Positions 24,281 to 51,388 of a stretch of 64,000 nt of DNA are shown one piece after another (the stretch's first letter is position 1; every line of letters starts with the position of its first letter). A model generated the notes under the pieces. The model ran no database searches. It worked only from the letters and a program-made list of their open reading frames with translations, and was not told the origin of the DNA. Both the position numbers and the translations under genes were made by a program. Source of the DNA: Bacteroidales bacterium (GTDB lineage Bacteria; Bacteroidota; Bacteroidia; Bacteroidales; WRLA01); contig OY781463.1 in assembly GCA_963676725.1 (NCBI GenBank), positions 2,786,398 through 2,850,397 of the forward strand, in the 5' to 3' direction.

Positions 24281-24561
24281 ACATTCCTCATAGAGTGTTT
24301 TAGGTATATTGCAATAATAGCCCACCCTATTTGTAAGCACATTGGCAAGTCACACGAGCTGCGCTCAAACCAGAACTTACCAAAGAGCTTACAAAGCCAG
24401 CCCTAAGTATCGCCTTTAAGGGCGATTTGGGATTTCCCCACCCACAAAAAACAAAATAAATTCGTACTTCTAATCAACGTCAGTGCGGATTGAAAAGATA
24501 AAAGATTAATTTTGTAAAAACTTGAAACAAATTGACTTTGAACAATGAACACCAGCATACA

Positions 24562-26622
24562 ATCGAGTAGGCTGCCGCTAGGCAGATTTGCCTAGCGGAG
24601 AACACTTCGATAAAAACTCAGTGCATCGCCTCTCACACCACTGTACCCTTCGACAAGCTCAGGATAAACCAAGCGGGTCTCGTATACAGCGGTTCATTAA
24701 GATGTGGGGCGATTTTTTCGTACATTTCGAGCAGGGACACATAGCCTCTTTTTCGTAGCCTTTCCAAGGTGATTGTTGTGCCCAGTATAGGGCTTTGAGC
24801 TACTGCCCTGCCTCCCATACGCGTCCATGCATATGCCTGCCCTTGGTTTACACCTAAACGTACAAGGTTTTTCCTTTTCCGTTCAGGCTTTTTCCAGTGG
24901 TGCCATATGCAATACCTCAGGCGGTTCCTTAGCCATCCATCAATGCTCTTGAGCTTTCCGGATATTTTTGCCATACGGAAGTACCCTAAGGCCACCTTGT
25001 GCCTCTATTATTTTCCGAATGCGTTCATCGAAAGTCATAGGGGTAGTTTTACGGGTGATCACTTTGAGCTTTTGCTTTAAGGATTGCCACCGCTTTTTCC
25101 CAACAACCATTTGGTATTTCCCTTTCTCACCTTTAATGTAAGTTGGGACAAACCCAAATCCGAGTATTGTTAGCTGCACAGGTTTTCGGATTCCGCTTTT
25201 TTCCCTGTTGATCGGTAACTTCAACTTTTGTTTCAGAAATAAATAGGTGTTGTTTCCTATCCTTCGGGCTGCCGACTTGCTTTTTGTGTAAATACTAAAG
25301 TCATCGGCATAGCGTATGAACCGAAGCCCTTGTCTTTTTAGTTCCTTGTCGAGCTCATGTAGCATGATGTTGGACAATAAAGGACTTTGCTGCCCTGCAT
25401 TCCGGCTCGCTCGTTAAAAATATCCACTGGATATTTTCTTAACACTCGGACCTCCTGTGGCACGCCCTTACGTCTTTTGGTCAGTTTGCCGTTGATCAAA
25501 ATCGGCGCCCTGAGCCATTTTCGTATAAGCCGTAGGGTGAGCGGGCATTTTACTCTACTGTAGAGCAGTTGAAGCAAAATACAGTGGTCCACTTCATCGA
25601 AGAACCCTCTTAGGTCAATATCGACTATGTGGCTGTATCCGTCATTAATGTGCTCCTGTGCTTTCAATACAGCTTGTTGGGCATTCCTGTTTGGCCTAAA
25701 ACCATAACTTTGGTCTTCAAAGCTTAGTTCAAATTTTGCCGCCAGTACCTGCCCTGTTGCTTGTTGCAATAGTCGGTCTGTTGCTGTTGGTATGCCTAGT
25801 AGGCGTGTTTTTCCATTGCTCTTTGGTATTTCTACCCCCAAAATAGCTTGTGGCAGGTATTTCCCGAGTCGTAGTGATGTCTCTAGAATATCACGCTGAT
25901 CGGACAGGTGTTTGTACAGGAAGCTTACCTGCATCCCATCTATACCTGCCGCGCCTTTGTTCTTTACAACTTGCCTTAAGGCTCTCATTACGTTTCTTCG
26001 GTCAATTACTTGCTCAATCATTTTTGGGTGTTAAAAAAAAATAATGTTTCCCTGTTCCGCTTATAAAAGGGCTACGGCCATTAAGCTGATCCCTAATGCA
26101 TTTGGAACATCTTAATGTTTAGTCCTTTATTGCTTTGTGAGACCTCCGTATATCTATTACGGCTCGTTGCCGGCAACTACTATGACTTCTGCTGACTTCT
26201 TGGCTTACAGAGAACACGTCTGTTCCAAGACCTCCCCAGGCGCTGCAGTGAGCACGGCCGAACTGTAAGAACCCTATCTTTCTACTTATGCCTGACACAT
26301 CTACTAAGCAAGGATTATTGGTCAGGGGCTTTGCAAAGATGTGCTTGCTTACCCTCCCTGTTTAGCCTCATATGTGCTTTCTGTTTAGTTTACCCTGAGG
26401 TGCTCGAAGGGTCAGTACAAGTATTTGCGGTCCTGCTTCCTTCAGTGAATACCTCACGATAAACCACCTTGCAGCTTGCTAATCGGCTTCACCAAATGCC
26501 GATAAGGGACTTTCACCCTCGAGATATTGTTCACCCACTTTTTGGCTCTGAAAAATAAATTTGTATTTTTGACATTTTTCTAAAGCTTTCGGTGGGTGTG
26601 CTTAAGCTCATGCTGGGCACAC
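24562..26622 (-). mobile_element. Group IIC intron, degenerate
   Basis: Same termini as 15293-15982; fragmented RT; insertions in domain V. Confidence 0.9.
24696..26021 (-). pseudogene. ltrA: Group II intron RT/maturase in three frames (3' end approximate)
   Basis: NKGAAGIDG, RLLGIPT, GVPQ, RYADD and maturase X motifs split over ORFs 25338-26021, 24940-25377, 24633-24995. Confidence 0.88.
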
Positions 26623-26770
26623 ACATTTTGTATAAGTAATGGCAGGCAAAGTATTAAATATCAAGGTTTGTAACCCGCTCAAACTGCGTAGCGGTTTGAC
26701 AGGAAAGTACCACGCAATCTGCCACTACTCATACAATTTTCCGTTAGCCCCCATTTAAAAAAAACTAAGT

Positions 26771-27334
26771 ATGGATTTCAAAAATAGAGTTCTAGAACAT
26801 TATAAAATGTCTGATTCCGAATGGGAGTATTCAATTAATTGCTTTACTGTGGAGCAAATACAGGCTAAGTCATTTTTTTTGAAACAAGGTGAAATTTCAG
26901 ATAAATTAGGAGCTCTTGAAAAAGGTTTATTGCGAACCTTTTATATAAATGATAATGCAACAGAGATAACAACACATTTTTACCAACCGACTAGTGTTGT
27001 AGTTTCTATTGATAGCTTTAATAAGCAAGTACCTTCAAACGAATTCATTGTTGCAGTAGAAGACTCTGAAATGTACATCTTAACTTATAAAAAAATGTTG
27101 GATTTAATAAATGCAGTACCGGTTTGGAAGCAAATTGCAACTGATACTTATGAAATAAAGCATAGGAATCAAACAAGGCGGACGCTTGATTTTCAAACTT
27201 TAACTGCAAAAGAGAGATACCTTCAACTTTTACTAATAAATCCTTCCATTATTCAAAAGGTTGCATTAAAGCATATTGCTACCTATTTGGGAATTGATGT
27301 AGCTACACTTAGCCGGATTAGAAATAATTTGTAA
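26771..27334 (+). CDS. Crp/Fnr-family regulator
   Basis: IATYLGIDVATLSRIR HTH. Confidence 0.9.
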   Translation: MDFKNRVLEHYKMSDSEWEYSINCFTVEQIQAKSFFLKQGEISDKLGALEKGLLRTFYINDNATEITTHFYQPTSVVVSIDSFNKQVPSNEFIVAVEDSEMYILTYKKMLDLINAVPVWKQIATDTYEIKHRNQTRRTLDFQTLTAKERYLQLLLINPSIIQKVALKHIATYLGIDVATLSRIRNNL

Positions 27335-27338
27335 TTTT

Positions 27339-27352
27339 TTGACTTTTGTCAA
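27339..27352. promoter_or_regulatory. FNR/Crp-like palindromic operator
   Basis: TTGAC-TTTT-GTCAA right after the regulator gene. Confidence 0.6.
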
Positions 27353-27416
27353 GTAATCATTTCGAACAACATAGATATTTTTGTTTAAACATAACAAACT
27401 TTTAAAGAACAATACT

Positions 27417-28304
27417 ATGGCAAGTGTTAGAAGCTCTATTCTTCGGTTTTTGTTAAGGCATTTAGTTGATTGGAATAAACCTTTAGACGAGGTTCGTGAA
27501 ATGCATAAAAAAGTTGAAAGTAAACCAAAGATTCCGAAAGATATCAAGATTAAAGAAGTAAAAATTAATGGAAGTATTTCAGAATGGTTTATACCTAATA
27601 ATAGAAATACAGAAAAGACCCTAATTTACATACATGGTGGTGGTTATTGCCTTGGAATCGTTAATGCAAATCGAAATTTTGTAATAATGTTGGCAAACTA
27701 TTTTCAAGTTCCAATTCTTATGCTTAATTATCGATTGGCTCCTGAAAATCCCTTTCCTGCAGCAATTGATGATGCGGTGCAATTATATAAATACCTTGTG
27801 AATGAGCAAAACATAGCACCACAAAATATCGGATATATTGCTGATTCATCAGGTTGTGGGCTTACACTCGCCTCATTCATCAGGTTAAAATCAGAAAACA
27901 TCTTACTACCAAAGTTTCAAATATTCATGTCACCTGTTGTTGACTTGACAAGACAAGGTGAATCCTTTCTAAAAATGAAAGATAAGGATCCTATGTCGAT
28001 TAAAAGAGAGTTCTATATAGACAATCTTTACTTGAATGGAAATAATCCGCAAAACCCTCTTATATCTCCTGTTTTCGGAGATTTATCAAATTTTCCTCAA
28101 ACTTTTATTCAGGCAAGTGAATTTGATGTATTCTTAAGTGATTCAGTAATGCTGGCTGATAAGCTAGAAAATCAAAATTGCAAAGTCCAATATAAATTAT
28201 GGGAAAAAATGTGGCATAATTTTCAGATGAGTCACTCAATATTACCTGAAGGAAAAAGAGCTATTTACGAAATCAAACATTATATTCAAGAGCAAATTTC
28301 GTAA
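27417..28304 (+). CDS. HSL-family alpha/beta hydrolase
   Basis: HGGG, YRLAPENPFPAA, ADSSG; ATG 27417 preferred over TTG 27381. Confidence 0.9.
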   Translation: MASVRSSILRFLLRHLVDWNKPLDEVREMHKKVESKPKIPKDIKIKEVKINGSISEWFIPNNRNTEKTLIYIHGGGYCLGIVNANRNFVIMLANYFQVPILMLNYRLAPENPFPAAIDDAVQLYKYLVNEQNIAPQNIGYIADSSGCGLTLASFIRLKSENILLPKFQIFMSPVVDLTRQGESFLKMKDKDPMSIKREFYIDNLYLNGNNPQNPLISPVFGDLSNFPQTFIQASEFDVFLSDSVMLADKLENQNCKVQYKLWEKMWHNFQMSHSILPEGKRAIYEIKHYIQEQIS

Positions 28305-28626
28305 GTGCTTAAAATTCTTTAATATTATTAAACAAGAAAAATGAGATTTTCAAAAAATAGCAGAAAACATGTTTTTCCACATAGGATATTCAGATTCTTA
28401 CTTTTAACTATGGTGCTTAATCTCATTGTTTTAACGCCCCAGATTTCTGCCCTGTAAAATGGTAAATTTATTTTGGTTATGAAAAATTTATTGAAACAAG
28501 AGTACAATTAATGATTACAGCAAGAAAATTCAATTGAATATTCAAGAGAAAAACAAATTGGTTTTCTAACAATTTTTTTCTTCGCGAAATGAAAAATAAA
28601 AAGGAATTAGATAAGAAAGTGATTTT

Positions 28627-29307
28627 ATGGGAAATAATTACACTAATAATACAATCTCGGAACAAAATGCCCTAATAGGGAGAATTATTTCATGGACTGT
28701 TTCTGTAACTATAATAATTTACCTAATTGTTTTAATTCTTGGGTTTTTATCATTAAAATCACCTGATGACCCCATTGGCAATCCTTATTTCACCATTCTT
28801 GAAATACTAATAATTCTACTTGCACCATCAATGGTGTTTTCCTTGGTAATTGTTCATAAATCAACTCCAGAGAACCTGAAGATATATTCATTGACAGCGT
28901 TGATTTTATTGTCAATTATGGCTTCTATTACATGTTGTTTACATTTTGTGATTTTAACTTTAAGTCAACAAGAAGCTTTCATGAATGAGAACTGGGCATT
29001 ACTGGTGTTTTCTTTTAAATGGCCATCCTTAGCATATTCAATTGATATCCTTGCTTGGGATTTCTTTTATGCTCTTTCAATGTTGTTTTTATCAGCAACA
29101 TTCAGAAAAAAGGGACTGGAAACCCTTATTCGTATAACATTAATCGTGAGTGGAGTTCTTTCATTTATAGGAATATTAGGTATTCCGTTGAATAATATGC
29201 AAGTAAGAAATATTGGAATAGTCGGATACACTATTTTCGCAATAATTTTATTCTTCTTAATTGGTGTCGCGTTTGAACGGAGAGCGATGAAACAGATAGG
29301 CAATTAG
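28627..29307 (+). CDS. Membrane protein
   Basis: About six hydrophobic segments. Confidence 0.8.
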   Translation: MGNNYTNNTISEQNALIGRIISWTVSVTIIIYLIVLILGFLSLKSPDDPIGNPYFTILEILIILLAPSMVFSLVIVHKSTPENLKIYSLTALILLSIMASITCCLHFVILTLSQQEAFMNENWALLVFSFKWPSLAYSIDILAWDFFYALSMLFLSATFRKKGLETLIRITLIVSGVLSFIGILGIPLNNMQVRNIGIVGYTIFAIILFFLIGVAFERRAMKQIGN

Positions 29308-29592
29308 GTTATGAGGATTATTAAATACATTACAGATTCCTTAGTGTCCCTTTAATCATATAAAAACAGAATATAAAAGCCCATGATAGTTCAATTTCTA
29401 AGACACTATTCGTCAGAACAAAACCATTGTCCTTCGAGCATTAACAACATATCAGTTTTTATGCAAACTAAGTATGTGTGATAGGAAAATATGCTATAAT
29501 AACTTTATACAAAAGGTGGTCATGAGGTAAATTCTGAGTTGGAAAACTAGAAGACAAATTAACACTTTCTTAAATAATTAAATTATACATTT

Positions 29593-30531
29593 ATGTCAAA
29601 TAATAATGTAAAAGAAACACTTATGAAATTAGCAGGTTTACTAGTTATTGTTTTAATTAACCTTTCTGTCAAAGCGCAAGAAAAATATGTAACAACTTCC
29701 GATAGTGTGAGCTTGTTTGTTAAGGTTAAAGGTAATGGACCAGCTTGTTTATACATTCATGGTGGTCCGGGTTCTGGTAGCAACTGGATGGAGGTGTTTA
29801 TGGGCGATTCACTCGAAAAACAATTCCAGATGATTTACCTCGACCAAAGAGGAGTAGGCAGATCTTCAAGTCCTGCTGATAAAAACTATTCAACGCAGCG
29901 CATGTTGCAAGATTTTGAGGAAGTTAGAGCTGAGTTGGGCATTAAGGAATGGTTGACCATCGGGCATTCTTTTGGTGGAATTCTGCAAATGGCTTATGTT
30001 AAAAGCTACCCTAAAGCGATTAAAGGACTAATGTTTATTAATTGCACCCTTGATATGAATGATAGTTTTGGAAATAGCTGGTTGCCCAAAGCAATAGATT
30101 TGCTAGGGGATGAGACTCCTGCAATATGTAGAGATACAACAGTATCAGTTTATCAACGTATGCTTGCAATTATGCCGGTTTTGGGCAAAAAAGGCGAGAT
30201 GTGGAAAATATTCTTTAACCATGAAGAAGACAGCTGGAAAATGAACGAAACCTATAGCAAATTTGAAAGCTGGAATGGTGAACAAAGCGAACAAATTCTG
30301 GAATTTGATGAGTATTGGCAGGATTTCAGAAATTATTCAGCAAAAGTTTCACAACCTGTACTTTTTTATTATGGTGAAACCGATTGGGCCATAGGCCCTG
30401 AACATTACAAAGGAGCGAAGTTCCCCGAAATGATTTTGTGGGGTAGTGAAGTTGGACACATGCCGTTTCTGGAAGACAAAACAGATGTTGTTAAAGCAAT
30501 CAACCTATTCAAATTGAAATATTTTTACTAG
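29593..30531 (+). CDS. Proline iminopeptidase-like alpha/beta hydrolase
   Basis: HGGPG, DQRGVGRS, GHSFGG. Confidence 0.88.
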   Translation: MSNNNVKETLMKLAGLLVIVLINLSVKAQEKYVTTSDSVSLFVKVKGNGPACLYIHGGPGSGSNWMEVFMGDSLEKQFQMIYLDQRGVGRSSSPADKNYSTQRMLQDFEEVRAELGIKEWLTIGHSFGGILQMAYVKSYPKAIKGLMFINCTLDMNDSFGNSWLPKAIDLLGDETPAICRDTTVSVYQRMLAIMPVLGKKGEMWKIFFNHEEDSWKMNETYSKFESWNGEQSEQILEFDEYWQDFRNYSAKVSQPVLFYYGETDWAIGPEHYKGAKFPEMILWGSEVGHMPFLEDKTDVVKAINLFKLKYFY

Positions 30532-30545
30532 CAGAATTTTTAAAA

Positions 30546-31463
30546 ATGAAACGAATTTTTGTCTGTTCTATTATACTTTTTAGTTTGCTTTCATACAACG
30601 TTTATTCACAGGAATTTAAATCGCCAAAGGACACAAGCAAGATAGAAAAAGGCACGCTTTACATAGCACTTGGTTTTACCGTAGCTTATTATGCAACTTC
30701 CATTTTTGTAATGAACAATACCTGGTATAAAGACAAAGAAAGAGTTCCATTTCATTTTTACAACGATAATGCAGGGTATCTTCAAGTCGATAAGTTTGGG
30801 CATATGTTTGGAGGTTACGTGTACAGCTACATTGGTTATTTTGGATTATTAAAACTTGGTGCAACTAGAAAAGAGGCACTCATTTTTGGCTCAACGTTAG
30901 GTTTTGTTTTGCAATTTCCGATTGAAATTATGGATGGATTGCACGAAGGCTATGGCTTTTCATGGGGCGATATAGCTGCAAATACAATGGGTTCAGCACT
31001 AGTGTTTGGGCAGGAATTATTGTTTCGGGAACAGGTTATAAAATATAAATTCAGTTATTGGGAATCAGAGTATTCAAAAAACTCGAATGGCTACTATGGT
31101 GAAACTACCTTGAATCGTCTGTTAAAAGATTATAATGGCCATACCTATTGGTTTTCAATTCCAATAAATAAGTTTATTTTCAAACAAACTTTACCTTCAT
31201 GGCTTAGCATTGCTGGAGGTTATGGTGCTAATGGCATGTATGGCGAATTCGAAAATGTCACCAGTTTCAACGGTGCTGCAATTCCAGAAACAGAAAGATA
31301 CCGTCAATACCTTTTATCGTTAGATATTGACTGGACAAGAATAAAAACAGATTCAAAGTTTTTACAGATACTTTTTAAAGGTATGACTTTTATAAAACTA
31401 CCTTTTTCGACTTTGGAATACAATTCAAAAGGGCGATTTAAAGGGTACTGGATTTATTATTAG
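30546..31463 (+). CDS. DUF2279/YfiM-like protein
   Basis: DKFGH, FSWGD, KDYNGHTYW, RYRQY..SLDID. Confidence 0.8.
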   Translation: MKRIFVCSIILFSLLSYNVYSQEFKSPKDTSKIEKGTLYIALGFTVAYYATSIFVMNNTWYKDKERVPFHFYNDNAGYLQVDKFGHMFGGYVYSYIGYFGLLKLGATRKEALIFGSTLGFVLQFPIEIMDGLHEGYGFSWGDIAANTMGSALVFGQELLFREQVIKYKFSYWESEYSKNSNGYYGETTLNRLLKDYNGHTYWFSIPINKFIFKQTLPSWLSIAGGYGANGMYGEFENVTSFNGAAIPETERYRQYLLSLDIDWTRIKTDSKFLQILFKGMTFIKLPFSTLEYNSKGRFKGYWIYY

Positions 31464-31606
31464 AAAGGAAATGAAAAAACGGGGGCTAATGTGTATAATT
31501 CATAAGGGTTTCAGAGATTTTCTAGCGTTGTTGCCCGCTTCAATTTTAGGTGGTAACTTGAAAGGTTTGAATCCCGCCATCCCTTACGAAATCATACACT
31601 TGCCGT

Positions 31607-33289
31607 CAGACTGTCTAAAAACCCCAAAACTTCCACCCAAAATTGTTGATAACATTCCGACTTATCAACAGCTATAAATGCTTGTTTATTAGTATATTCA
31701 TAGCATGAAATACATGATAGGAAAAGATCGGAACCAAGTATCAATTTTCCCCATTTCTTTGGATGAATCTATCCATAAAGATCATGAGGTGCGGATTATT
31801 GATCTTTTTGTAGACAGCCTTGAATTATTAGAAATGGGCTTTCGTGTAGATTTTATGGAGAACGGAAGACCTGCTTATCATCCCAAAGACCTTCTAAAAC
31901 TCTTTATTTATGGCTACCTGAACAGAACACGCTCCTCACGTGAGCTCGAAAAAGAATGCACACGGAACATCGAAGTGATTTGGTTGCTCAAAGGCCTAAA
32001 GCCCGACCATAATACGATTTCCAACTTCCGCCGCGACCATTCCAAAGCCATAAAGAATGTGTTTCGTGCCACGGTATGCATAGCCAAGAACTTAGAACTA
32101 ATCGGCGGGAAACTGCTTGCCGGAGACAGCACCAAACTCCGGGCACAGAATTCCAAGAAGGCCAATTATAATGCAAAAAAGATTGAGCGCCATTTGACCT
32201 ATATCGACAACAAACTTGCTACTTACCAGGAGCAGTTGGCCAAAGCTGACGGGGACAATCAAGCGCTGATACAGCAAGAGATTGAGAAACACAAAGAGCG
32301 CAAGCAATTCTACCATGATATAGAACACCAATTAGAAGAATCCGGCGAAACCCAGGTATCCACAAGCGATCCGGAAAGCAGGCAAATGATCACACGCAAC
32401 AATATCACCGAAGTAGCCTACAATGTACAAACAACGGTCGATTCAGCCCATATGATCCCCATCGATTATAAAGTGACCAATGAAAACGACAGCAAAGCAA
32501 TGGGCGATATGCTCCACCGCAGTAAAAGCATCATTGGCCACAATAATTTTACCGCCCTCTACGATAAAGGCTACCATACAGGCAGCGAGTTTCAAACCGC
32601 CCACGATTTAGGCATAAATGTACTGGTTGCCATTCCTAAAGTAGCGGCCAATGCCCCCGATCCTAACTACAATGTAGAACACTTTCGATATGATAAAGAC
32701 AAGGACTGTTATCATTGTCCCCAAGGCCATGAGATGCACACAACAGGTAAATGGCACCAGGCGAAAACCTATCAATTTAAGCGTTATACAACTCGCCAAT
32801 GCCTGAGCTGTCCGGTAAAAGACAAATGCTCTAAGGCTAAATACGGCAAGGCAATACAACGATCTGAATATCAAGAATATATAAATACAAATAAGGAAAA
32901 CATAGAGAAAAACCTGGATTACTACCGCCGACGACAGGCAATTGTGGAACACCCATACGGCACCATCAAGCGTCAATGGGGATTTAGCTACATAATGACC
33001 AAACGCAGTAAACAACGCGCCTCGGCGGATGTAGGATTTATATTTATTGCTTATAATTTACGTCGTATTATGAATATCCTTGGCATTCATGTATTTAAGC
33101 AATACCTCATTGCTTTATCTGTTCTAATAGCCTTCATTTTGGCTTCCATATATGCGTTTTGCCGAAGGATAAAAAGCATTGCTGCCCAAAGGTATCGAAA
33201 AATAGATGCACTTAGAACGCAAATATTTGCTAAATTTATGCCGTATTTAGGTACAATTTAAAAGAGAACGGAGGTTTTAAGACAGACTG
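31607..33289 (+). mobile_element. IS1182-family element, copy 1 (1683 bp)
   Basis: IRs CAGACTGTCTAAAAACC / GGTTTTAAGACAGACTG; CCGT duplication. Confidence 0.92.
31705..33261 (+). CDS. IS1182-family transposase
   Basis: GRPAYHP, SSRELE, PDHNTISNFR, DKGY, YRRRQAIVEHPYGTIK. Confidence 0.93.
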   Translation: MKYMIGKDRNQVSIFPISLDESIHKDHEVRIIDLFVDSLELLEMGFRVDFMENGRPAYHPKDLLKLFIYGYLNRTRSSRELEKECTRNIEVIWLLKGLKPDHNTISNFRRDHSKAIKNVFRATVCIAKNLELIGGKLLAGDSTKLRAQNSKKANYNAKKIERHLTYIDNKLATYQEQLAKADGDNQALIQQEIEKHKERKQFYHDIEHQLEESGETQVSTSDPESRQMITRNNITEVAYNVQTTVDSAHMIPIDYKVTNENDSKAMGDMLHRSKSIIGHNNFTALYDKGYHTGSEFQTAHDLGINVLVAIPKVAANAPDPNYNVEHFRYDKDKDCYHCPQGHEMHTTGKWHQAKTYQFKRYTTRQCLSCPVKDKCSKAKYGKAIQRSEYQEYINTNKENIEKNLDYYRRRQAIVEHPYGTIKRQWGFSYIMTKRSKQRASADVGFIFIAYNLRRIMNILGIHVFKQYLIALSVLIAFILASIYAFCRRIKSIAAQRYRKIDALRTQIFAKFMPYLGTI

Positions 33290-33291
33290 CC

Positions 33292-33705
33292 GTTATGCCC
33301 GATTTTCTTTGCTGCGGTGTAGCTTTTTTGAAGGAAATTTTTGCGCAATTGTTCTTTGATACTTAAAAACCTGCAATTGCTTACAGCACTGGCCCACGCT
33401 TCGGAAGCAGGTTTTGCAGGATAAAAAAATTCGAGTTTCAATCCTGATTTTGTGATGAAACACGCAAAAATATTTTGATTTGCTATTGTACATTTGGCCT
33501 TTTTATTAACTTTGGCTCTGGCCTGCGCATTTCAGCCAGCGCACAATGCCGACGCTATGTCCGACGCACATTAAGAACCGGGCATAACCAAAGCTATTCC
33601 CCATAAGGGGTTTAATCGTTAAAACAAAGATTATGCAAGTGAAAATTATTATTAATAGATTGATAATTAGTGGTTTTGGAGTCCCTTACGTGGGATAGCT
33701 GGAAC
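33292..33705 (+). repeat. ORF-less cassette, copy 3, including attC-like site 8 (33579-33715)
   Basis: Near-identical to 12884-13297. Confidence 0.88.
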
Positions 33706-33754
33706 GTTAGCACCAATGTAGCCAAAACGATAGCACAACTTAAAAATTAGAGAT

Positions 33755-34864
33755 ATGAAGACTAAATTTATTTTCACCCTGATTTTAATATTTCCGACTT
33801 TGAGTATTTTCTCACAGGATTTAGTATTTAATCATGGAGGAGCCCTAAATGATGGAGTTTATGAAACAACACCCTTAACTCGATTTAATGAGATTTCTTG
33901 GAAAACTGAGTTAAAAGGGAAAGGGAATGAGGATTGTATTATTCACAGAGACGTGATTTACACGACCGCAAGAAAATACAACAGGGAGACTAAAACTCAT
34001 AAAAGCTATATTTATGCAATTAAGGCACATAGTGGAGAAGTAATTTGGTTAGACTCCTTAAACGGTAGAGTGTCAACTCCAAATATTAAGGATTCGATAC
34101 TGTATTATGGCGTTGATGAGCAGGACGGCAGACAATATGCAATAAATAAAGATAACGGTAAGATAATTTGGAGCATAACATCAAGGTATGCTGCATGTTG
34201 GCAACCTGCAATAATTGGTGACAAAAATTATTTTGGAAGCCACGGTGATAGGTGGTATGTTGTAAATAACATAACTGGTGATTTGATTCTTAAGGATACA
34301 ATTGACGGGGGTATTTGTTGTCGTCCTTCGATTTTAGATACGATGCTGTACTTTGTTGATAGGAAAGGATTACTTCATGCTTACAACACAAAAATTGATA
34401 AAGATATTTGGACTTTTAATTCGGGCGCTGGCTCAAATAATGCACCTGCAATTTATGAAGGCAAAGCATTTATGATAAATAAAAGTGGAGAAATATTTGC
34501 AATAGATTTAAAAACAGGACAGAAAATCTGGTCTTATAAAACAGGAGATACGATGTTTCGTTCACCTGCTGTTAAGGATAAAACGGCAACAGTGATTACA
34601 ACAAATGGATTGATATTTGCCTTTGATACTGAAAATGGTGAAATTAAGTGGCAACAAGAAAAGAAAGGACTTGGATATACGAACACGTCAATTGTTGACA
34701 ATATCGTTTATGTAGGTTGTGCAGATAATCATCTTTATGCTTTTGATTTGTATACGGGAAAAGAGATTTGGAATTTCAAAGCAGATTCTAAAGTTAATAC
34801 TCCATTGATTGATAATGAAACAGTATATTTTACAAGTGGAGAATATTTATACTCAATAAAGTAA
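33755..34864 (+). CDS. Cassette gene: PQQ-like beta-propeller (BamB-like) protein
   Basis: Repeated AxDxxTGxxxW motifs; signal peptide. Confidence 0.88.
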   Translation: MKTKFIFTLILIFPTLSIFSQDLVFNHGGALNDGVYETTPLTRFNEISWKTELKGKGNEDCIIHRDVIYTTARKYNRETKTHKSYIYAIKAHSGEVIWLDSLNGRVSTPNIKDSILYYGVDEQDGRQYAINKDNGKIIWSITSRYAACWQPAIIGDKNYFGSHGDRWYVVNNITGDLILKDTIDGGICCRPSILDTMLYFVDRKGLLHAYNTKIDKDIWTFNSGAGSNNAPAIYEGKAFMINKSGEIFAIDLKTGQKIWSYKTGDTMFRSPAVKDKTATVITTNGLIFAFDTENGEIKWQQEKKGLGYTNTSIVDNIVYVGCADNHLYAFDLYTGKEIWNFKADSKVNTPLIDNETVYFTSGEYLYSIK

Positions 34865-35000
34865 ACACTGGTGCTAACACGCGGTCATAAAACATTGGGG
34901 GCGAAGTGGTTATTCGAGCTTTGGTTCTCGCATCAAAGTTCATCGTACCTTGATAGAGAAGTAGCTCCGAAATCCCCAACGATTTTATACCGCCATCCGT

Positions 35001-36683
35001 CAGACTGTCTAAAAACCCCAAAACTTTCCCTCAAAATTGTTGATAACATTCCGACTTATCAACAGCTATAAATGCTTATTTATTAGTATATTCATAGCAT
35101 GAAATACATGATAGGAAAAGATCGAAACCAAGTATCAATTTTCCCCATTTCTTTGGATGAATCTATCCATAAAGATCATGAGGTGCGGATTATTGATCTT
35201 TTTGTAGACAGCCTTGAATTATCAGAAATGGGCTTTCGTGTAGATTTTGTGGAGAACGGAAGACCTGCTTATCATCCCAAAGACCTTCTAAAACTCTTTA
35301 TTTATGGCTACCTGAACAGAACACGCTCCTCACGTGAGCTCGAAAAAGAATGCACACGGAACATCGAAGTGATTTGGTTGCTTAAAGGCCTAAAGCCCGA
35401 CCATAATACCATTTCCAACTTCCGTCGCGACCATTCCAAAGCCATAAAGAATGTGTTTCGTGCCACGGTATGCATAGCCAAGAACTTAGAACTAATCGGC
35501 GGGAAACTGCTTGCCGGAGACAGCACCAAACTCCGGGCACAGAATTCCAAGAAGACCAATTATAATGCAAAAAAGATTGAGCGCCATTTGACCTATATCG
35601 ACAACAAACTTGCTACCTACCAGGAGCAGTTGGCCGAAGCTGATGGGGACAATCAAGCGCTGATACAGCAAGAGATTGAGAAACACAAAGAGCGCAAGCA
35701 ATTCTACCATGATATAGAACACCAATTAGAAGAATCCGGCGAAACCCAGGTATCCACAAGCGATCCGGAAAGCAGGCAAATGATCACCCGCAACAATATC
35801 ACCGAAGTAGCCTACAATGTACAAACAACGGTCGATTCAGCCCATATGATCCCCATCGATTATAAAGTGACCAATGAAAACGACAGCAAAGCAATGGGCG
35901 ATATGCTCCACCGCAGTAAAAGCATCATTGGCCACAATAATTTTACCGCCCTCTACGATAAAGGCTACCATACTGGCAGCGAGTTTCAAACCGCCCACGA
36001 TTTAGGTATAAATGTACTGGTTGCCATTCCTAAAGTAGCGGCCAATGCCCCCGATCCTCACTACAATGTAGAACACTTTCGATATGATAAAGACAAGGAC
36101 TGTTATCATTGTCCGCAAGGCCATGAGATGCACACAACAGGCAAATGGCATCAGGCGAAAACCTATCAATTTAAGCGTTATACAAGCCGCCAATGCCTAG
36201 GCTGTCCGGTAAAAGATAAATGCTCTAAGGCTAAATACGGCAAGGCAATACAACGATCTGAATATCAAGAGCATATAAATACAAATAAGGAAAACATAGA
36301 GAAAAACCTGGATTACTACCGCCGACGACAGGCAATTGTGGAACACCCATACGGCACCATCAAGCGACAATGGGGATTTAGCTACATAATGACCAAACGC
36401 AGCAAACAACGCGCCTCGGCGGATGTAGGATTTATATTTATTGCTTATAATTTACGTCGAATTATGAATATTCTTGGCATTCATGTATTTAAGCAATACC
36501 TTATTGCTTTATCTGTTCAAATAGCCTTTGTTTTGGCTTCCAGACACGTATTTTGCCGAAGGATAAAAAGCATTGCTGCCCAAAGGTATCGAAAAACAAA
36601 TGCCCTTAGAACGCAAATATTTGCTAAATTTATGCCGTATTTCGGTACAATTTAAAAGAGAACGGAGGTTTTAAGACAGACTG
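35001..36683 (+). mobile_element. IS1182-family element, copy 2 (1683 bp)
   Basis: Same IRs; CCGT at 34997-35000 and 36684-36687. Confidence 0.92.
35099..36655 (+). CDS. IS1182-family transposase
   Basis: Near-identical to 31705-33261. Confidence 0.93.
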   Translation: MKYMIGKDRNQVSIFPISLDESIHKDHEVRIIDLFVDSLELSEMGFRVDFVENGRPAYHPKDLLKLFIYGYLNRTRSSRELEKECTRNIEVIWLLKGLKPDHNTISNFRRDHSKAIKNVFRATVCIAKNLELIGGKLLAGDSTKLRAQNSKKTNYNAKKIERHLTYIDNKLATYQEQLAEADGDNQALIQQEIEKHKERKQFYHDIEHQLEESGETQVSTSDPESRQMITRNNITEVAYNVQTTVDSAHMIPIDYKVTNENDSKAMGDMLHRSKSIIGHNNFTALYDKGYHTGSEFQTAHDLGINVLVAIPKVAANAPDPHYNVEHFRYDKDKDCYHCPQGHEMHTTGKWHQAKTYQFKRYTSRQCLGCPVKDKCSKAKYGKAIQRSEYQEHINTNKENIEKNLDYYRRRQAIVEHPYGTIKRQWGFSYIMTKRSKQRASADVGFIFIAYNLRRIMNILGIHVFKQYLIALSVQIAFVLASRHVFCRRIKSIAAQRYRKTNALRTQIFAKFMPYFGTI

Positions 36684-36761
36684 CCGTTGTGTGTAAGTTA
36701 ATAACCTAACTGTAAAAGGAAAATATACGAGCTGAAAATAGAATTTTGACAATTACGAAAA

Positions 36762-37401: not shown

Positions 37402-39346
37402 GTGTGCCAAGAATCAACCACGGCAATAAACAGGTTGAATGCTGTAAATAAGATGATAGTAGGTCTATCAGGGTCGTTGTATAGGCGATGGCTTTAAACC
37501 ACCTAAAGATGCTGCAGTAAAGAGCTGTGGTGTTGAGCGTTTAGGAGAATCCTGTCCAAGAGGCAGGCAGGTATGGATAAAGGAGATGAACGAAAGTGAA
37601 CCATTGATGAGGTGTCGAGACGTTGCGTTACATCCAGTCAAAAGCTACGGAGTATGAGACGGAGTGAAAAAAGGTATGAAAAAAAAACATATCAATTGCA
37701 GAAGTTACCTATTTACTTTCTGTAAGGCTGGCGGCATTCAGATGGCATGAACTTTATCTAGGCTTATTTATGGAACTTGGGAACCTGGATATTGATGATA
37801 GATTGCAGGATGCTACCGCCAAAGGATTCGCAGGCAGTACGAAGGGAAATGCACGATAAGATCAACTTAGAGGCAGAATACCAATGCAATATTCAGGGGC
37901 AGACTAATCCGTAGTAGTGATGAAGTATCTGTAATGGAAACGGAGCGAAGGGATTAGGTTATACAGTATCATAACATTAAAACAACTCAGAACGAGGATG
38001 ACTTTATGGAATGAAACAAAATCGATACCGATAAGCCACTCAATGATTTGGGAGGCATATAAGAAAGTTAGGGCCAACAAAGGGAGTGCAGGAGTGGACG
38101 ATTTAGGCATGGAGGAATATGATTCTAGCAAAAGGAAACACCTGTACAAACTATGGAATCGTATGGCATCGGGGAGTTATTTTCCGCCAGCAGTCAAAGA
38201 AGTGGAAATACCAAAGAAAGATGGTAAAGTCAGGAAATTGGGAATACCCACAATCAGCGACAGGGTGGCACAGATGGCTATTAAAATGTATATCGAACCA
38301 AGGTTTGAGGAAATATTCAGTTCAAATTCTTATGGTTATCGACCGAAAAAGAATGCGCACCAAGCATTGCAAAAGGTACGGGAAAACTGTTGGAAGTCCA
38401 ACTGGGTAATAGATTTAGATATAAAAGGGTTCTTTGACAATATTAGTCATGCAAAACTGATGTTAGCAGTAGAGAAGCATGTACCGGAGAATTGGATAAA
38501 ACTCTACATAAAACGATGGCTCACAGCCCCAGTACTCAAAAAGACAGGAGAACTGATCACAAAGGAAGGTAAGGGAACGCCACAGGGAGGAGTTATAAGT
38601 CCTCTTCTGGCGAATTTATTTCTGTACTATGGCTTTGATAAATGGTTAGAACAAACTGACAAAACAGTGGACTACACAAGATATGCCGATGATGTGATAG
38701 TGCACTGTAGGAGTAAACAACATGCAGAACACATATTAAAGCGAATCAACCAACGGATGAACGATATTGAATTGGAGTTGCATCCAGAGAAAACAAAAAT
38801 TGTTTATTGTAAGGATTATCGGAGGAACGAAAAACATCCAGAATCTAAGTTTGATTTTTTGGGTTACTCTTTCCAACCCCGAACAACCAAATCAAAGAGG
38901 AACAATGGACTGTTTCTCGGGTTTGACTGTGCTATTAGTATAAGTTCAAGAAAGCGTATAGCTGACAAACTAGGAGAACTGGAAGTAGAGAGGATGACCT
39001 TTAAAAGTGTAGTAGGCATTGCCCAAAAATTGAATCCAATGATTCGAGGGTGGATACAATATTACGGTAAATTTAGGATATCCTCATTGCATACAGTTTT
39101 TAGAGGGTTAAATAAGCGTTTAACAAGGTGGGCAAGAAAACGGTATAAACGTTATAAGACAAGTATAAAGCGAGCATATAAATGGTTAGCAAGAGTACAG
39201 GAACAATATCCTTATTTATTCTACCATTGGCAGTTAGGATTTGTCTATTAATTAAGTATTTTTGTATAACAAGAGCCGTATGATGGGAGACTATCACGTA
39301 CGGTTCTGTGAGAGGCTCGGGGTGAAATTCCCCTTGCCTACTCGAT
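37402..39346 (+). mobile_element. Group II intron, class D (RmInt1-like), apparently intact
   Basis: 5' GTGTG; domain V GAGCCGTATGATGGGAGACTATCACGTACGGTTC; 3' CTACTCGAT. Confidence 0.92.
37998..39251 (+). CDS. ltrA: Group II intron RT/maturase without endonuclease domain
   Basis: LYKLWNRMASGSYFPP, GTPQGG, RYADD, KTKIVYCKD. Confidence 0.95.
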   Translation: MTLWNETKSIPISHSMIWEAYKKVRANKGSAGVDDLGMEEYDSSKRKHLYKLWNRMASGSYFPPAVKEVEIPKKDGKVRKLGIPTISDRVAQMAIKMYIEPRFEEIFSSNSYGYRPKKNAHQALQKVRENCWKSNWVIDLDIKGFFDNISHAKLMLAVEKHVPENWIKLYIKRWLTAPVLKKTGELITKEGKGTPQGGVISPLLANLFLYYGFDKWLEQTDKTVDYTRYADDVIVHCRSKQHAEHILKRINQRMNDIELELHPEKTKIVYCKDYRRNEKHPESKFDFLGYSFQPRTTKSKRNNGLFLGFDCAISISSRKRIADKLGELEVERMTFKSVVGIAQKLNPMIRGWIQYYGKFRISSLHTVFRGLNKRLTRWARKRYKRYKTSIKRAYKWLARVQEQYPYLFYHWQLGFVY

Positions 39347-44601: not shown

Positions 44602-45342
44602 ATGGTAGAACGCATACAAAGAGGCAGCGAAACCCATTATCTCTCCTACATTTCTTCGCCCGACGGGCTGGTGGCAATGCACATCAGTGATGATGACGGC
44701 CGCGACGAAATGAAGTATGTGCTCACCGATTACCTGGGGACTATATACGCTTTGGTGGATGATGGTGCCCAAAGCACGATGAATAAAAGCATTGATTGGG
44801 GTGATGCACTGTGGGGTGACATTGATTTTCTTGATTGTGCGATATCTGGAATTTCTGATGTGGCAACACTTGGGGTTTCTAAAATAACCAAGCTCCTCAA
44901 AATTAGTAAAACAGGGATGAAAGCCATCAATATTGGTTTTAAAGCGATTAATACATATGTTTCTAATTCCTTTAAATCTCAACATGATTTTACTCCTAAT
45001 GATGGATATAAAGTATATCATGATGATATAAACGACGCTGGTAGGAAAGCATCAAATTTAAAATCATTTACTCTGGATATTGCTTTTGACTTTGCTTTTG
45101 AAAAAATAGTTCCAAAGAAGTATGTAGGAAGTTTTGACTCAAAAAGATTCATTGATAGGTTAAAACGTTTTGCTGCATCCACATTCACCATGCCAGCTGG
45201 AAATGATTTTCAAAATAGAATATTTGAGCATGAAATGAATAGATCAAACGAATATATCTTTGATGATGAAAATGGCGAATGGATAAGAGATAATACACCA
45301 AAAATACCATACATGATAAATTTTAATAATGGAGGAAGATAA
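44602..45342 (+). CDS. Orphan Rhs fragment with internal core deletion plus variable C-terminus
   Basis: Shares the first ~58 aa with the other modules, then lacks the DPxG region. Confidence 0.75.
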   Translation: MVERIQRGSETHYLSYISSPDGLVAMHISDDDGRDEMKYVLTDYLGTIYALVDDGAQSTMNKSIDWGDALWGDIDFLDCAISGISDVATLGVSKITKLLKISKTGMKAINIGFKAINTYVSNSFKSQHDFTPNDGYKVYHDDINDAGRKASNLKSFTLDIAFDFAFEKIVPKKYVGSFDSKRFIDRLKRFAASTFTMPAGNDFQNRIFEHEMNRSNEYIFDDENGEWIRDNTPKIPYMINFNNGGR

Positions 45343-45350
45343 AACAAAAG

Positions 45351-45788
45351 ATGGATAAAGCAAATAAAGTAAAAGAAGCAATTACAGGCCTATTATTGAT
45401 TATAGTCCCTATTGTTATTATTGCCGGTGTAATCCACTACTTATCTAGTTCACAACAAATTGAAAATGAAAGGATTTTAAAAATTGGAGAAAGAGCATTG
45501 GCTATATATACGCATAATTCCGGCGGCAGATTTAACGGTTGTCCAGTTTATGAATTTTTGGTCAATGGCAAAAATTATTCGATTGCTATTTCTAGTACAA
45601 TACGTTATAAGTTATATCAGTATCCTAAAACTAAGCCAGTTCCTGCTTTGATTTCATATGACCCGTCAGATCCAAGCAAAAATACAGTAGTTTGTAATAC
45701 TTATTTTGAGTTTGAAGGGCATAAAATAATATGGGAGGAAGGGGATAGGGGGATTCTTATCAAGGCATTCCCTGTTGATAATAATTAA
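45351..45788 (+). CDS. Putative immunity protein (membrane-anchored)
   Basis: Directly after Rhs-CT; N-terminal TM helix. Confidence 0.65.
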   Translation: MDKANKVKEAITGLLLIIVPIVIIAGVIHYLSSSQQIENERILKIGERALAIYTHNSGGRFNGCPVYEFLVNGKNYSIAISSTIRYKLYQYPKTKPVPALISYDPSDPSKNTVVCNTYFEFEGHKIIWEEGDRGILIKAFPVDNN

Positions 45789-45807
45789 TCAATAAATTAT
45801 TTATATT

Positions 45808-45942
45808 ATGGAACTAGTTCTGATTTTTTTTATTCTAATATTTACAGTTTATTCACATGCCCAAACCACCTACCAATACGACGAAAACGGCAACCGCACC
45901 GCCCGTATTATAGATTTGGGCAAGGATATAGAACCAAAATAA
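45808..45942 (+). CDS. Small signal-peptide ORF (truncated paralog of 55802-56275)
   Basis: MELVLIFFILIFTVYSHAQTTYQYDENGNRTARIIDLGKDIEPK. Confidence 0.6.
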   Translation: MELVLIFFILIFTVYSHAQTTYQYDENGNRTARIIDLGKDIEPK

Positions 45943-46013
45943 TTTTGAATAAGTATTTTCCATTAACCGAAAAAGAAATAATTTTAATCCTTTAGAACAA
46001 ATATCCTTAAAAA

Positions 46014-47426
46014 ATGGTAGAACGCATACAAAGAGGCAGTGAAACCCATTACCTCTCCTACATTTCTTCACCCGAGGGGCTGGTGGCAATGCACATCAGT
46101 GATGATGCTGGCCGCGATGAGATGAAGTATGTGCTCACCGATTACCTGGGGACTATATACGCCTTGGTGGATGATGGCGCCCAAAGCTCAGACGATGCGC
46201 TCTATTACAGCTTTAATGCCTGGGGCGAACGCCGCGAGCTGCAAGCCTATGATGGCAGCCTTACGGCACCGCTTTTCTCCGACCCGGCCGACTATATTAC
46301 CAGCCGTGGCTATACCGGACATGAGCATATCGATGCTTTTGACTTAATTAATATGAACGGCAGGGCATACGATCCTGTTGTGGGCGCATTTTTAAGTCCT
46401 GATCCTTATGTTCAGGCTCCGGACATGCCACAGAACCTGAACCGCTATGCCTATTGTTTGAATAACCCTTTGAAATACACAGATCCGAGTGGGGAGTTTA
46501 TAATGACCATTATGTTTGCAATGATGACCAATGTAATGATTCAGGGACTTTCTGGGAATATGAATACTATGGGCTCTTTTTTCCTGGCAGCAGGAATTGG
46601 AGCTGCTTCTGCTGGTGTAGGGCTTGCAACCGGCAGTATATTCCTTGGCGCTTTCTTTGGCCAAACGGGCAATTCTTTAGTAAACGGAAACAACTTTGGG
46701 CAAAGCGTTTTAGCAGGACTACAAGCCGGGGCTGCTTCTGTAGCGGTTGCTGCTGGATTGCAGCTTATTTCTTCTGGTGCTCAATCTGCATATAAGGCAA
46801 TTGCTGAAAAAATAAAATTCAATAAAGTGCATGGTGAAATACTTAGTTCCCCAACCTTTCAAGGTAAATATAAGGGAAAAGAAACAGGAATTGAAACGAC
46901 TGAACAACTTGTAGAGGAAGCGAAAAAGTTTTTGCCAGATTTGGATGAATATGCATCAGACGTTTTGCTGTCTTCTGATCCAAATGCTAAAGCAATGACT
47001 GCTACATATCAAGGTATAGATATTCTTGACGATGACACCTTGTTACATAACGGGGCTGAAGTTGGAGGTGTCACAATACCATATGAGGATTATGCTGGTC
47101 GACCTACTCCAAGAATTATTATTTCCTCAAAAGAAGCAGCTTATTCATTGTCCTTTCAAGCAGTTATGTCTCATGAGTTCACCCACTCTTTTCATTATAA
47201 AACTGGCCTATTTGGAAAATTAGGTACTGCTTTACATAGCAATGAAGAAGTTACAGAATATTTTGCTCATGAAATCAATATTGCTTTCAGGCATAGAATG
47301 GTTAATAGTTACAGTATTGATCAAGCGCTATTTAATCCGGTAGCCAGAACTTATAAAGGATTTAATGTATATCCACCTTCTGTGGATAAATTTGGTATTT
47401 GGAAATATCATAAATTTAGCAAATAA
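46014..47426 (+). CDS. Orphan Rhs core fragment plus zincin-like metallopeptidase C-terminus
   Basis: RGYTGHEH, MNGRAYDP, NNPLKYTDPSG; HEFTH. Confidence 0.88.
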   Translation: MVERIQRGSETHYLSYISSPEGLVAMHISDDAGRDEMKYVLTDYLGTIYALVDDGAQSSDDALYYSFNAWGERRELQAYDGSLTAPLFSDPADYITSRGYTGHEHIDAFDLINMNGRAYDPVVGAFLSPDPYVQAPDMPQNLNRYAYCLNNPLKYTDPSGEFIMTIMFAMMTNVMIQGLSGNMNTMGSFFLAAGIGAASAGVGLATGSIFLGAFFGQTGNSLVNGNNFGQSVLAGLQAGAASVAVAAGLQLISSGAQSAYKAIAEKIKFNKVHGEILSSPTFQGKYKGKETGIETTEQLVEEAKKFLPDLDEYASDVLLSSDPNAKAMTATYQGIDILDDDTLLHNGAEVGGVTIPYEDYAGRPTPRIIISSKEAAYSLSFQAVMSHEFTHSFHYKTGLFGKLGTALHSNEEVTEYFAHEINIAFRHRMVNSYSIDQALFNPVARTYKGFNVYPPSVDKFGIWKYHKFSK

Positions 47427-48139
47427 TGGATCTATACGAATATAAAAATCTCAACCCGATGAAATCACTAAAACTATTTGTTTTTATTAATTTAATTGCT
47501 CAACTACTTTCCGTATCATCTATGTCCGTTTTTGGACAGAAAAACTGCAGTTCAAATAATTCACTGCTTGGAATTTATTTAATTGGTGAGGAAAAATCAA
47601 ATGAAGCAGATAGAAAAATAACGTGGTATATATCGATATGCAGAGACAATCACATTAGTTTAAGAACGTCCAAAAGAACAACTTCAAATCTAAAAGAAGC
47701 AAGTGAAGTATCTGCTCCTAAAGGGATTAAATATGAAGCATTCGTATACGCCCTTAGAGATGAGTATAAGTATTATATTGGTCAGTATAAAATATTGAAT
47801 GACACCCTGAAAGCAAATTTGAATAATAATCAAAACATTTCTTTTTTAATAATAGACTCTCTAAATTTAAAATTAATTGATTGTGACCCCGGCTTTCCTC
47901 ATTTCAAAAATGAATACGCCCATAAATATATTGGCTTTTACACCAACCATTGGTTATGTGGTGAGTTTGGGGTTAACAATAAAAGTTGGGCCTATAGTGG
48001 TGACAGCAGAGACACCCTTTTCGAAAACAGAAAAGAATATTTTTGGATGTATGCTGACTCCACTATAGGTAAATGGATAGAAAGCCTAGATGCCTACAGA
48101 ATTTACGATACAACAGCTCGTCCCAGATATAAACAATAA
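47426..48139 (+). CDS. Putative immunity protein
   Basis: Coupled to the toxin stop; signal peptide; paralog of 49813 and 50512. Confidence 0.7.
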   Translation: MDLYEYKNLNPMKSLKLFVFINLIAQLLSVSSMSVFGQKNCSSNNSLLGIYLIGEEKSNEADRKITWYISICRDNHISLRTSKRTTSNLKEASEVSAPKGIKYEAFVYALRDEYKYYIGQYKILNDTLKANLNNNQNISFLIIDSLNLKLIDCDPGFPHFKNEYAHKYIGFYTNHWLCGEFGVNNKSWAYSGDSRDTLFENRKEYFWMYADSTIGKWIESLDAYRIYDTTARPRYKQ

Positions 48140-48150
48140 ACTTAGTTACA

Positions 48151-48297
48151 ATGAAAATTAGATTAACCACATTTCTTATTATATGCTTGTTTGCCATAAA
48201 TATAAACATCGATGCCCAAACCACCTACCAATACGATGAAAACGGTAACCGCACAGCCCGTATCATAGATTTGGGCAAGGATCTGAAAACAAAATAA
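48151..48297 (+). CDS. Small signal-peptide ORF (truncated paralog of 55802-56275)
   Basis: MKIRLTTFLIICLFAININIDAQTTYQYDENGNRTARIIDLGKDLKTK. Confidence 0.6.
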   Translation: MKIRLTTFLIICLFAININIDAQTTYQYDENGNRTARIIDLGKDLKTK

Positions 48298-48369
48298 ATT
48301 TGAATAAGTATTTGCCTTTAATCGAAAAAGAAATAATTTTAATCCTTTAGAATAAATATCCTCAAAAGA

Positions 48370-49767: not shown

Positions 49768-49812
49768 GAATTGAAATTAGACTAATTTTTAAATTATTCG
49801 AAAATAAAAATA

Positions 49813-50469
49813 ATGACCAAAATGCTTAAATATTTCACTATGTTGATATTCATATTATCCGAATATCAAGGTCTTTGTCAAAAGCTACCTTCTTCCAGCC
49901 TTTATGGGGTATATTCCCTAGAAGAAGCTTCAAATAGTATTAGTTTCAGAAAGCTAGATTGGCAAATAATAATCTGTAAAGATAATCGGGTATTGATTAA
50001 AGCTCCTAAAATAAATAATAGTAAACTTACCTTTTTAAAAAAAGACAGCATCCCAAATTGTTTCTTAAGAGAAAATTTAGAATTCAAATTGAATTTTAAC
50101 TTCCTTGTAGGTAAATATGAAATACAGCATGATACTATAATGATTTTACTTAATAACAGACAAAACATTAGCTTTAAGATTGTAGACTCACTAAATCTAA
50201 GGATCATCAACAAAAACTCAGTCTTTCCAAAATTTAGAGCCAATTTTGCGCATAAAGTCAGTGGCTTTTATCACAACCATTGGTTTTGTGGAGTTTCAGG
50301 AAGTAATAATACTAACTGGGTCTATTGCGGAGATACTTATGATACGCTGTTGATAAATAGAAGAAATAACTTTTGGATGTTTGCCGACACAACCAAATCA
50401 AATATTTATGAACAATTAGATGCTTTTAGAATTTATGACACAACCGCTTACCCAAAGTATAAACAATAA
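49813..50469 (+). CDS. Putative immunity protein
   Basis: Follows Rhs-CT; GFYxNHWxCG and FWMxAD..RIYDTTA motifs. Confidence 0.7.
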   Translation: MTKMLKYFTMLIFILSEYQGLCQKLPSSSLYGVYSLEEASNSISFRKLDWQIIICKDNRVLIKAPKINNSKLTFLKKDSIPNCFLRENLEFKLNFNFLVGKYEIQHDTIMILLNNRQNISFKIVDSLNLRIINKNSVFPKFRANFAHKVSGFYHNHWFCGVSGSNNTNWVYCGDTYDTLLINRRNNFWMFADTTKSNIYEQLDAFRIYDTTAYPKYKQ

Positions 50470-50511
50470 TTAACAACCTCTTTTATTGTCAGGATTCAAA
50501 ATCTCAACCCG

Positions 50512-51186: not shown

Positions 51187-51196
51187 ACTAATTACA

Positions 51197-51355
51197 ATGA
51201 AAATTAGATTAACCACATTTCTTATTATATGCTTGTTTGCCATAAATATAAACATCGAAGCCCAAACCACCTACCAATACGACGAAAACGGCAACCGCAC
51301 AGCCCGTATCATAGATTTGGGCAAGGATCTGGAGGAGAAGGTATCTGCTCATTAG
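51197..51355 (+). CDS. Small signal-peptide ORF (truncated paralog of 55802-56275)
   Basis: MKIRLTTFLIICLFAININIEAQTTYQYDENGNRTARIIDLGKDLEEKVSAH. Confidence 0.6.
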   Translation: MKIRLTTFLIICLFAININIEAQTTYQYDENGNRTARIIDLGKDLEEKVSAH

Positions 51356-51388
51356 ATTCCTATTTGTGGTTAAAAATATTATATAAAT

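Follow-up and report, generated by a model that had tools for sequence, protein, structure and literature searches.

IS1182-family insertion sequences at the crossover cores of attC-like hairpins in an integron-like array of a Bacteroidales bacterium

A 64,000-nt stretch, hereafter the window (contig OY781463.1, positions 2,786,398 to 2,850,397 of the forward strand), of the closed 5.19-Mb genome (G000) of a Bacteroidales bacterium carries an integron-like array of gene cassettes, and two copies of an insertion sequence (IS) of the IS1182 family have been inserted into it at the same nucleotide of two different recombination sites. Each insertion falls in the GTT crossover core that closes a long hairpin and has duplicated 4 bp. 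The ends of the element have a fixed polarity relative to the hairpin, a promoter-like motif lies at the end that faces the next cassette, and the same habit is found across lineages that are 35–100% identical. The preliminary description had likened the sites to attC, and their hairpin, their G|TT core, and the complementarity of their R'' boxes bear this out. Because the array recombinase lacks the IntI insertion, the array is integron-like and not a strict integron, and we use the term "attC" by analogy.

The two insertions in the window

The two copies and the sites that they occupy are as follows.

31482–31604, + strand: attC-like hairpin 1 (R'' GGGGCTAAT at 31482–31490, arms, and spacer); the GTT after it has become GTC
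31603–31606, + strand: left duplication CCGT of copy 1 (spacer CC plus GT of the crossover core)
31607–33289, + strand: IS1182-family copy 1 (A type), 1683 bp, with terminal inverted repeats (TIRs) at 31607–31623 and 33273–33289
31705–33261, + strand: transposase of copy 1, 518 aa
33290–33294, + strand: right duplication CCGT (33290–33293) plus T, copy 1; the restored GTT (33292–33294) starts the next cassette
34870–34998, + strand: attC-like hairpin 2 (R'' GGTGCTAAC at 34870–34878)
34997–35000, + strand: left duplication CCGT of copy 2
35001–36683, + strand: IS1182-family copy 2 (B type), 1683 bp, 1 nt different from the copy at genome position 2096241
35099–36655, + strand: transposase of copy 2, 518 aa
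36684–36688, + strand: right duplication CCGT (36684–36687) plus T, copy 2; the restored GTT (36686–36688) starts a GNAT cassette

The copies are co-oriented, have 17-bp imperfect TIRs (15/17 matching) with a single transposase open reading frame (ORF) between them, and differ from each other at 45 nt and 16 aa. Each duplicated CCGT is made of the last two bases of a 5-nt unpaired spacer and the GT of the GTT that closes an imperfect inverted repeat of ~115 nt, and the inverted repeats of site 1 and site 2 are unrelated in sequence. Coordinates and flanks agree with the preliminary description, in which two co-oriented copies duplicate CCGT over the GTT core of two unrelated sites.

In an arm-pairing scan, a stem score has been calculated for the sequence before each of the 26,294 NCGTT sites of the genome. 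The two window sites score 33 and 35, while a score of at least 30 is reached by 74 of the genomic sites (0.3%). The whole-site folding energy of site 2 is significant (bottom strand z -2.7, with 0/200 shuffles as stable), and site 1 is assigned by the pairing of its outer arms and by where it lies in the array. After insertion, the upstream site consists of the hairpin followed by GTC, and the downstream GTT is left without a hairpin, with stem scores after the IS of 15.5–24.5. The insertion has parted GTT from its stem, as had been proposed, and the same scores rule out the right end of the IS as the supplier of a fresh attC hairpin.

The transposase matches the NF033551 IS1182 model with 339.8 bits against a cut-off of 270. 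Its Pfam domains are DUF772, DDE_Tnp_1_6, and DDE_Tnp_1, and no IS110-family match has been found in Pfam or NCBIfam. Residues D141, D287, and E415 are invariant in an alignment of 43 homologues, together with C338, C366, C369, and C375; the three acidic residues are the putative DDE triad and the four cysteines putative Zn ligands.

Genomic copies, homologues, and the polarity of the element

The closed genome contains eight full copies of the IS. Their flanks have been collected as a test of the proposed targeting, and all eight copies sit at (A/C)CGT|T immediately after a stem scoring 32–37.5, against the 0.3% background. The bottom strand folds better than the top strand in 6/8 of these targets. 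Seven copies share one orientation, and the eighth (4903928) is inverted and lies at the palindrome TAACGTTA. The copies at 4227971 (ACGT) and 4231363 (CCGT) are identical elements with different but matched duplications and therefore represent separate events with a true 4-bp duplication, which rules out a 3-bp duplication. Separate insertion had previously been argued from the 16-aa difference between the window copies; the claim holds on the strength of these identical copies, and the amino acid difference is the weaker argument. By manual reading of the site list, about 30 attC-like sites have been left empty, so that 8 of about 38, or approximately one in five, are occupied. Two copies have ACGT on the left and CCGT on the right. 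At 36 diagnostic positions, they alone combine the A type in the left three quarters with the B type in the right part, which fits recombination between IS copies.

Outside this genome, the habit has been followed in 120 gathered loci (including nine from the closed genome; two duplicates were dropped), of which 96 outside the closed genome, at ≥55% identity, are considered close homologues. The metagenome loci among them are not fully independent, and metagenome contigs can be chimeric. The left flank ends in NCGT in 85/86 readable close homologues, the right flank starts with NCGTT in 79/84, and matched 4-nt duplications are found in 56/78 (8/12 loci in genomes and 48/66 in metagenome contigs). 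A left stem scoring at least 28 is present in 36 of the 55 loci with ≥135 nt of flank, or in 38/55 when short sites are allowed, against a null of 0.6–0.7%; the predicted enrichment of hairpin plus NCGTT is thus present in the close homologues. A stem of this strength on the opposite side occurs in 1/62, and this is an inverted copy. The remaining 17/55 comprise nine that by eye resemble short or decayed sites, the inverted copy just mentioned, and seven without a hairpin.

Distant elements with 35–44% identity (L003, L004, L036, L037, L039, L040, and L154) are inserted at the same nucleotide. In a quick tree (70/133 proteins), the attC-associated elements form three supported lineages, whose joint monophyly the tree does not settle. 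The outgroups L011, L035, L123–L126, and L128 sit in palindromes. Among nine plasmid relatives, most of those with readable ends lie in short palindromes, and so do L011 and L035. The clostridial IS1182 element L122 (37% identity, 1201–2652) has duplicated ACGT at a 2-nt bulge and the lower stem of domain V of a group II intron, and this single case has the same unpaired-to-paired geometry as the attC-like sites. No relative has been found in viral contigs, and a class-level search around the genome G313 returned G313 alone (1/201).

In 54/58 hairpin-confirmed junctions, the element end next to the hairpin is the one whose fourth base is a purine. Three of the four exceptions are at ACGT cores (3/16 vs 1/42, Fisher p 0.06), and inverted copies are found mainly at these palindromic cores. 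The right end carries an outward motif, which in the window lies at the following positions.

33231–33238, + strand: outward TAAATTTA of copy 1, a predicted promoter that differs from the Bacteroides -7 motif at one position and lies 59 nt from the right end
36625–36632, + strand: outward TAAATTTA of copy 2; predicted promoter motif

The Bacteroides -7 promoter consensus is given as TAnnTTTG (PMC9330008). Outward TAnnTTTG is found in 28/73 non-redundant right ends, against 13 inward and a mean of 5.3 in shuffled sequences (max 14), and outward TAnnTTTR in 62/73, against 18 inward and a shuffled mean of 16.5 (max 25), with 40/68 TAnnTTTR matches located 40–49 nt from the element end. At left ends the motif occurs in 7/94, counted over a shorter stretch. 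Five elements have their gene directed against the cassettes; in these the motif lies where the gene starts, which is again the end that faces the cassette. Three non-attC relatives have it at neither end. The motif-bearing end faces the downstream cassette irrespective of the direction of the transposase gene.

IS relics in the closed genome are mostly right ends (31 vs 2 left ends), and 28/31 right-end relics keep the -7 motif, a count biased by how BLAST finds relics. Many old right-end relics (e.g. 1254215–1254310, 1770035–1770162, and 912153–912225) contain a short palindrome resembling repetitive extragenic palindromic (REP) elements inside the terminal repeat, just before the GTT of a cassette.

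Structure, sequence, and other explanations of the target choice

Site-specific targeting of the attC core by an IS1182 DDE element is strongly supported by the eight genomic copies and most homologues. What the transposase reads at these sites is less firmly settled. We give somewhat better than even credence to recognition of the hairpin plus core by the transposase alone, and hairpin guidance, as first proposed, is the likeliest reading, with extended sequence read-out fitting the data too. Weight matrices have been built from foreign homologue targets and scored on the closed genome. A core matrix (-6..+5) places 2% of expected insertions at stem sites, with P(8/8) of about 3e-14, and a short motif is therefore rejected as the sole guide; a matrix spanning -8..+13 gives 57% (P 0.011). 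In the explanation that competes most directly, the transposase reads an extended duplex motif of ~40 bp (right arm, spacer, CGTT, RNNNNYAA) and the hairpin is a passenger of conserved attC sequence. The right flanks are indeed strongly GTTRNNNNYAA (A at +12 in 76/85), and orientation tracks the local sequence asymmetry. The long matrix that would describe such a motif was trained on attC sites and hence favours itself, while several targets with a strong stem (copy 2096241, L008, L010, L028, and L110) score no higher than background with the upstream matrix, and sites that are short and look canonical but have different, unrelated arms are also used (L099 and L106). Relatives use hairpins without a common sequence, both among the outgroups described above and in PMC4923244. 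The poor-motif targets and the short sites tilt the balance towards structure, and we judge the extended motif rather unlikely.

The insertion point coincides exactly with the recombinase crossover, which would also be expected if the tyrosine recombinase of the array, bound at the R box, recruited the transposase by protein-protein contact; the genome has two near-identical recombinases (that of the second array is 98% identical to the window's), which could serve arrays without one in trans. This is made distinctly improbable by the lack of any copy at an attI-like site next to a recombinase gene (within the fetched flanks, only L015 had a recombinase remnant, ~1.1 kb away), by the outgroups that target hairpins without a recombinase, and by L122, which uses an intron hairpin. 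Selection could in principle produce a similar pattern if every NCGTT were open to insertion and copies outside cassette junctions were lost. An insertion at a junction leaves genes intact and could bring in a promoter, and the homologue flanks with a core only would fit. A preference for harmless positions would not confine insertions to a single nucleotide, stems are found at just 0.3–0.7% of NCGTT sites, and the two recent, identical copies each occupy an attC core, all of which makes this explanation very improbable. An element-encoded RNA guide is barely credible. It would have a precedent in the IS1111 members, for which attC targeting is described as RNA-guided (PMC11187229), but the non-coding ends of the present element are 98 and 28 nt with weak folds, and an Rfam scan gave group II intron matches only and none for the IS element. 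In addition, homologues with the same target differ freely in their ends, and the enzyme is of DDE type with a duplication.

Some observations weigh against recognition of hairpin and core by the transposase. The 41-bp matrix (-26..+15, 18 bits) places 97% of expected insertions at stem sites without any structural term, with P(8/8) of 0.76. For seven of 55 left flanks (L016, L064, L072, L086, L111, L116, and L119), neither the scan nor visual inspection finds a hairpin on one side or the other. The whole-site fold of site 1 in the window is not significant (z -1.3, 20/200 shuffles). L031 and L038 (53% identity) duplicate ACCT away from attC, and L031 falls inside the query's clade in the tree. 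The AlphaFold model of the transposase is poor (predicted local distance difference test 60.9, predicted template modelling score 0.39), with no Foldseek match at E ≤0.001 and no solved relative by sequence. Finally, the -7 motif of the window element, from which its promoter is predicted, has one mismatch.

Two of these cases have features of their own. L031/L038 (G264) have symmetric ends and no outward -7 motif and duplicate ACCT before CA, which appears as a natural target switch. The left flank of L116 has a promoter-like sequence and a G-rich run before CCGT and is possibly attI-like. A duplicated IS-plus-flank in G080 (L008/L016) was considered as an IS-led cassette moved by the recombinase and was rejected, as the shared 1645-nt flank crosses a transposase-like gene and shows no cassette boundary. 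The non-C base of the closed genome's attI-like site is found in 0/86 left flanks, which weakly suggests that the recombinase seldom moves units headed by an IS. To that extent it favours the earlier proposal that insertion may lock the cassettes, although IS copies appear to recombine with one another.

Related systems, possible consequences, and the host array

No report of IS1182 at attC has been found in the literature, judged by abstracts and the matches listed; elements of this kind could already be named in ISfinder or in supplementary tables of IS targets. The available portions of PMC12444791 and 10.1101/2025.07.22.666184 make no IS1182-attC link. Within this search, targeting of attC appears in print only for unrelated mobile elements, in line with the preliminary description, and hairpin targeting itself is already known in the family. 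IS1272/TnSha1 of staphylococci belong to the same family and insert into targets that form a hairpin but have no long fixed sequence; for some IS1182 members the targets are palindromes (PMC4923244). IS1272 is described there as inserting at varied points of terminator stems, in both orientations, with part of the target deleted and no duplication. In contrast, the element described here makes a 4-bp duplication at one nucleotide of crossover cores, has polar ends, and keeps all 4 nt.

Two other kinds of mobile element are known at attC. The IS1111-attC group (ISPa21, ISPst6, and ISKpn4) is site-specific with a fixed orientation and a suggested outward promoter (PMC11187229, PMC3001079). These elements have the DEDD transposase of the IS110/IS1111 type, use a seekRNA (PMC11187229), and insert near the 5' end of attC (PMC3001079) in antisense, whereas the present insertions are at the 3' crossover core with the gene in sense in this lineage. 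Group IIC-attC introns likewise combine homing to attC with outward promoters, which express the following cassette (PMC3001079), as is predicted here, and such introns are also present in the window array. They are retro-elements that insert into the bottom strand near the R'' end (PMC3001079), by a chemistry unrelated to that of the IS element.

The transposase may engage an extruded hairpin, either a cruciform or a single strand, where the unpaired 5-nt spacer meets the R box, and a 4-nt staggered strand transfer could then take place in the re-annealed or adjacent duplex. The asymmetry of CCGTT would orient the insertion, and palindromic ACGT cores would allow either orientation. The upstream site, now hairpin plus GTC, probably recombines poorly, and the downstream cassette would keep its GTT and lose its hairpin. 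Recombination between IS copies may offer a second route to array rearrangement, and the next cassette would stay expressed from the outward promoter predicted at the end that faces it. Taken further, and as a proposal that we hold only tentatively, this IS1182 lineage may be a widespread, structure-guided, polar parasite of arrays: a protein-only DDE enzyme would read an unpaired-to-paired junction, insert at the crossover nucleotide, freeze the upstream cassette, and give a promoter to the next, with right-end relics domesticated as cassette promoters. If true, such an element would be a portable means of inserting DNA at designed hairpins with single-nucleotide precision. The targeting itself adds a third, chemically unrelated route to cassette recombination sites, after the RNA-guided IS1111 elements and group IIC introns, and provides a clean case for the choice of a structured target by a DDE enzyme, with one nucleotide, many unrelated arms, and the target-switched sister L031/L038. 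It also bears on the stabilization and expression of the little-studied integron-like arrays of Bacteroidota, where the element appears to bring its own promoter to the sites it occupies.

The array itself has the following features upstream of and between the two IS copies.

10026–11483, + strand: Xer-like tyrosine recombinase at the array head (SAM_4 and Phage_integrase), without the IntI insertion
11639–11648, + strand: attI-like first crossover GTTAGGGCAC, no hairpin, complementary to R'' of the first cassette
26743–31604, + strand: five-ORF cassette upstream of copy 1; start GTTAGCCCC complementary to its own R''
33292–33705, + strand: ORF-less 414-bp cassette, with further copies at 12884–13297 and 13298–13709
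33706–34998, + strand: cassette with a pyrroloquinoline quinone (PQQ)-like beta-propeller gene (33755–34864)

The array recombinase heads a row of co-oriented genes. About 30 residues of IntI4 (2A3V, 208–240) have no counterpart in it, and it aligns best with XerA/XerD, where this gap is absent. It scores 181 against a cut-off of 265 for the integron integrase model TIGR02249. As in true integrons, cassette starts complement their own R'': along arrays 1–3 of the genome, each R'' is complementary to the GTT-start of its own cassette, which is what circularization of cassettes at G|TT would produce. By layout, the array also resembles the rAID-1 clusters of Bacteroidales, in which an XerD-like recombinase (>44% identical to B. 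fragilis BF9343_RS08045) lies upstream of co-oriented low-GC genes parted by integron-like repeats (10.1101/471110). Unlike the rAID-1 immunity genes of that report, the window array holds mixed environmental genes.

Recombinase-gene fragments lie at 9307–9424, upstream of the intact gene, and at genome position 4910901–4911035, where array 3 begins; this array is without an intact recombinase. The 26743–31604 cassette is unusually long (4.9 kb), and its ORFs encode a cyclic nucleotide monophosphate-binding protein, two hydrolases, a DUF2279 protein, and one protein of no assigned function. The ORF-less cassette is also present in array 2 and lies directly behind the attI-like site in the public runs X1 and X5; it may be a promoter or spacer cassette. 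Public-run contigs over the region contain no joint that cleanly skips an IS, and their loose ends are hints of cassette reshuffling only.

Three kinds of element target attC-like sites within this one array. Besides the IS copies, two decayed group II introns (15293–15980 and about 24560–26620) lie antisense at the R'' end of attC-like sites, which is the IIC-attC pattern. An intact group II intron at 37402–39346 (reverse transcriptase 37998–39251) has entered the right arm of an attC-like site on the top strand, ~10 nt before GTT (39356), with strand and end opposite to that pattern. A transposase of the IS1595 family is also found within the array (16891–17910). Further downstream, at 44602–56275, RHS-core-like modules that share their ends recur in alternation with small genes, an arrangement which we take to resemble a polymorphic toxin/immunity array.

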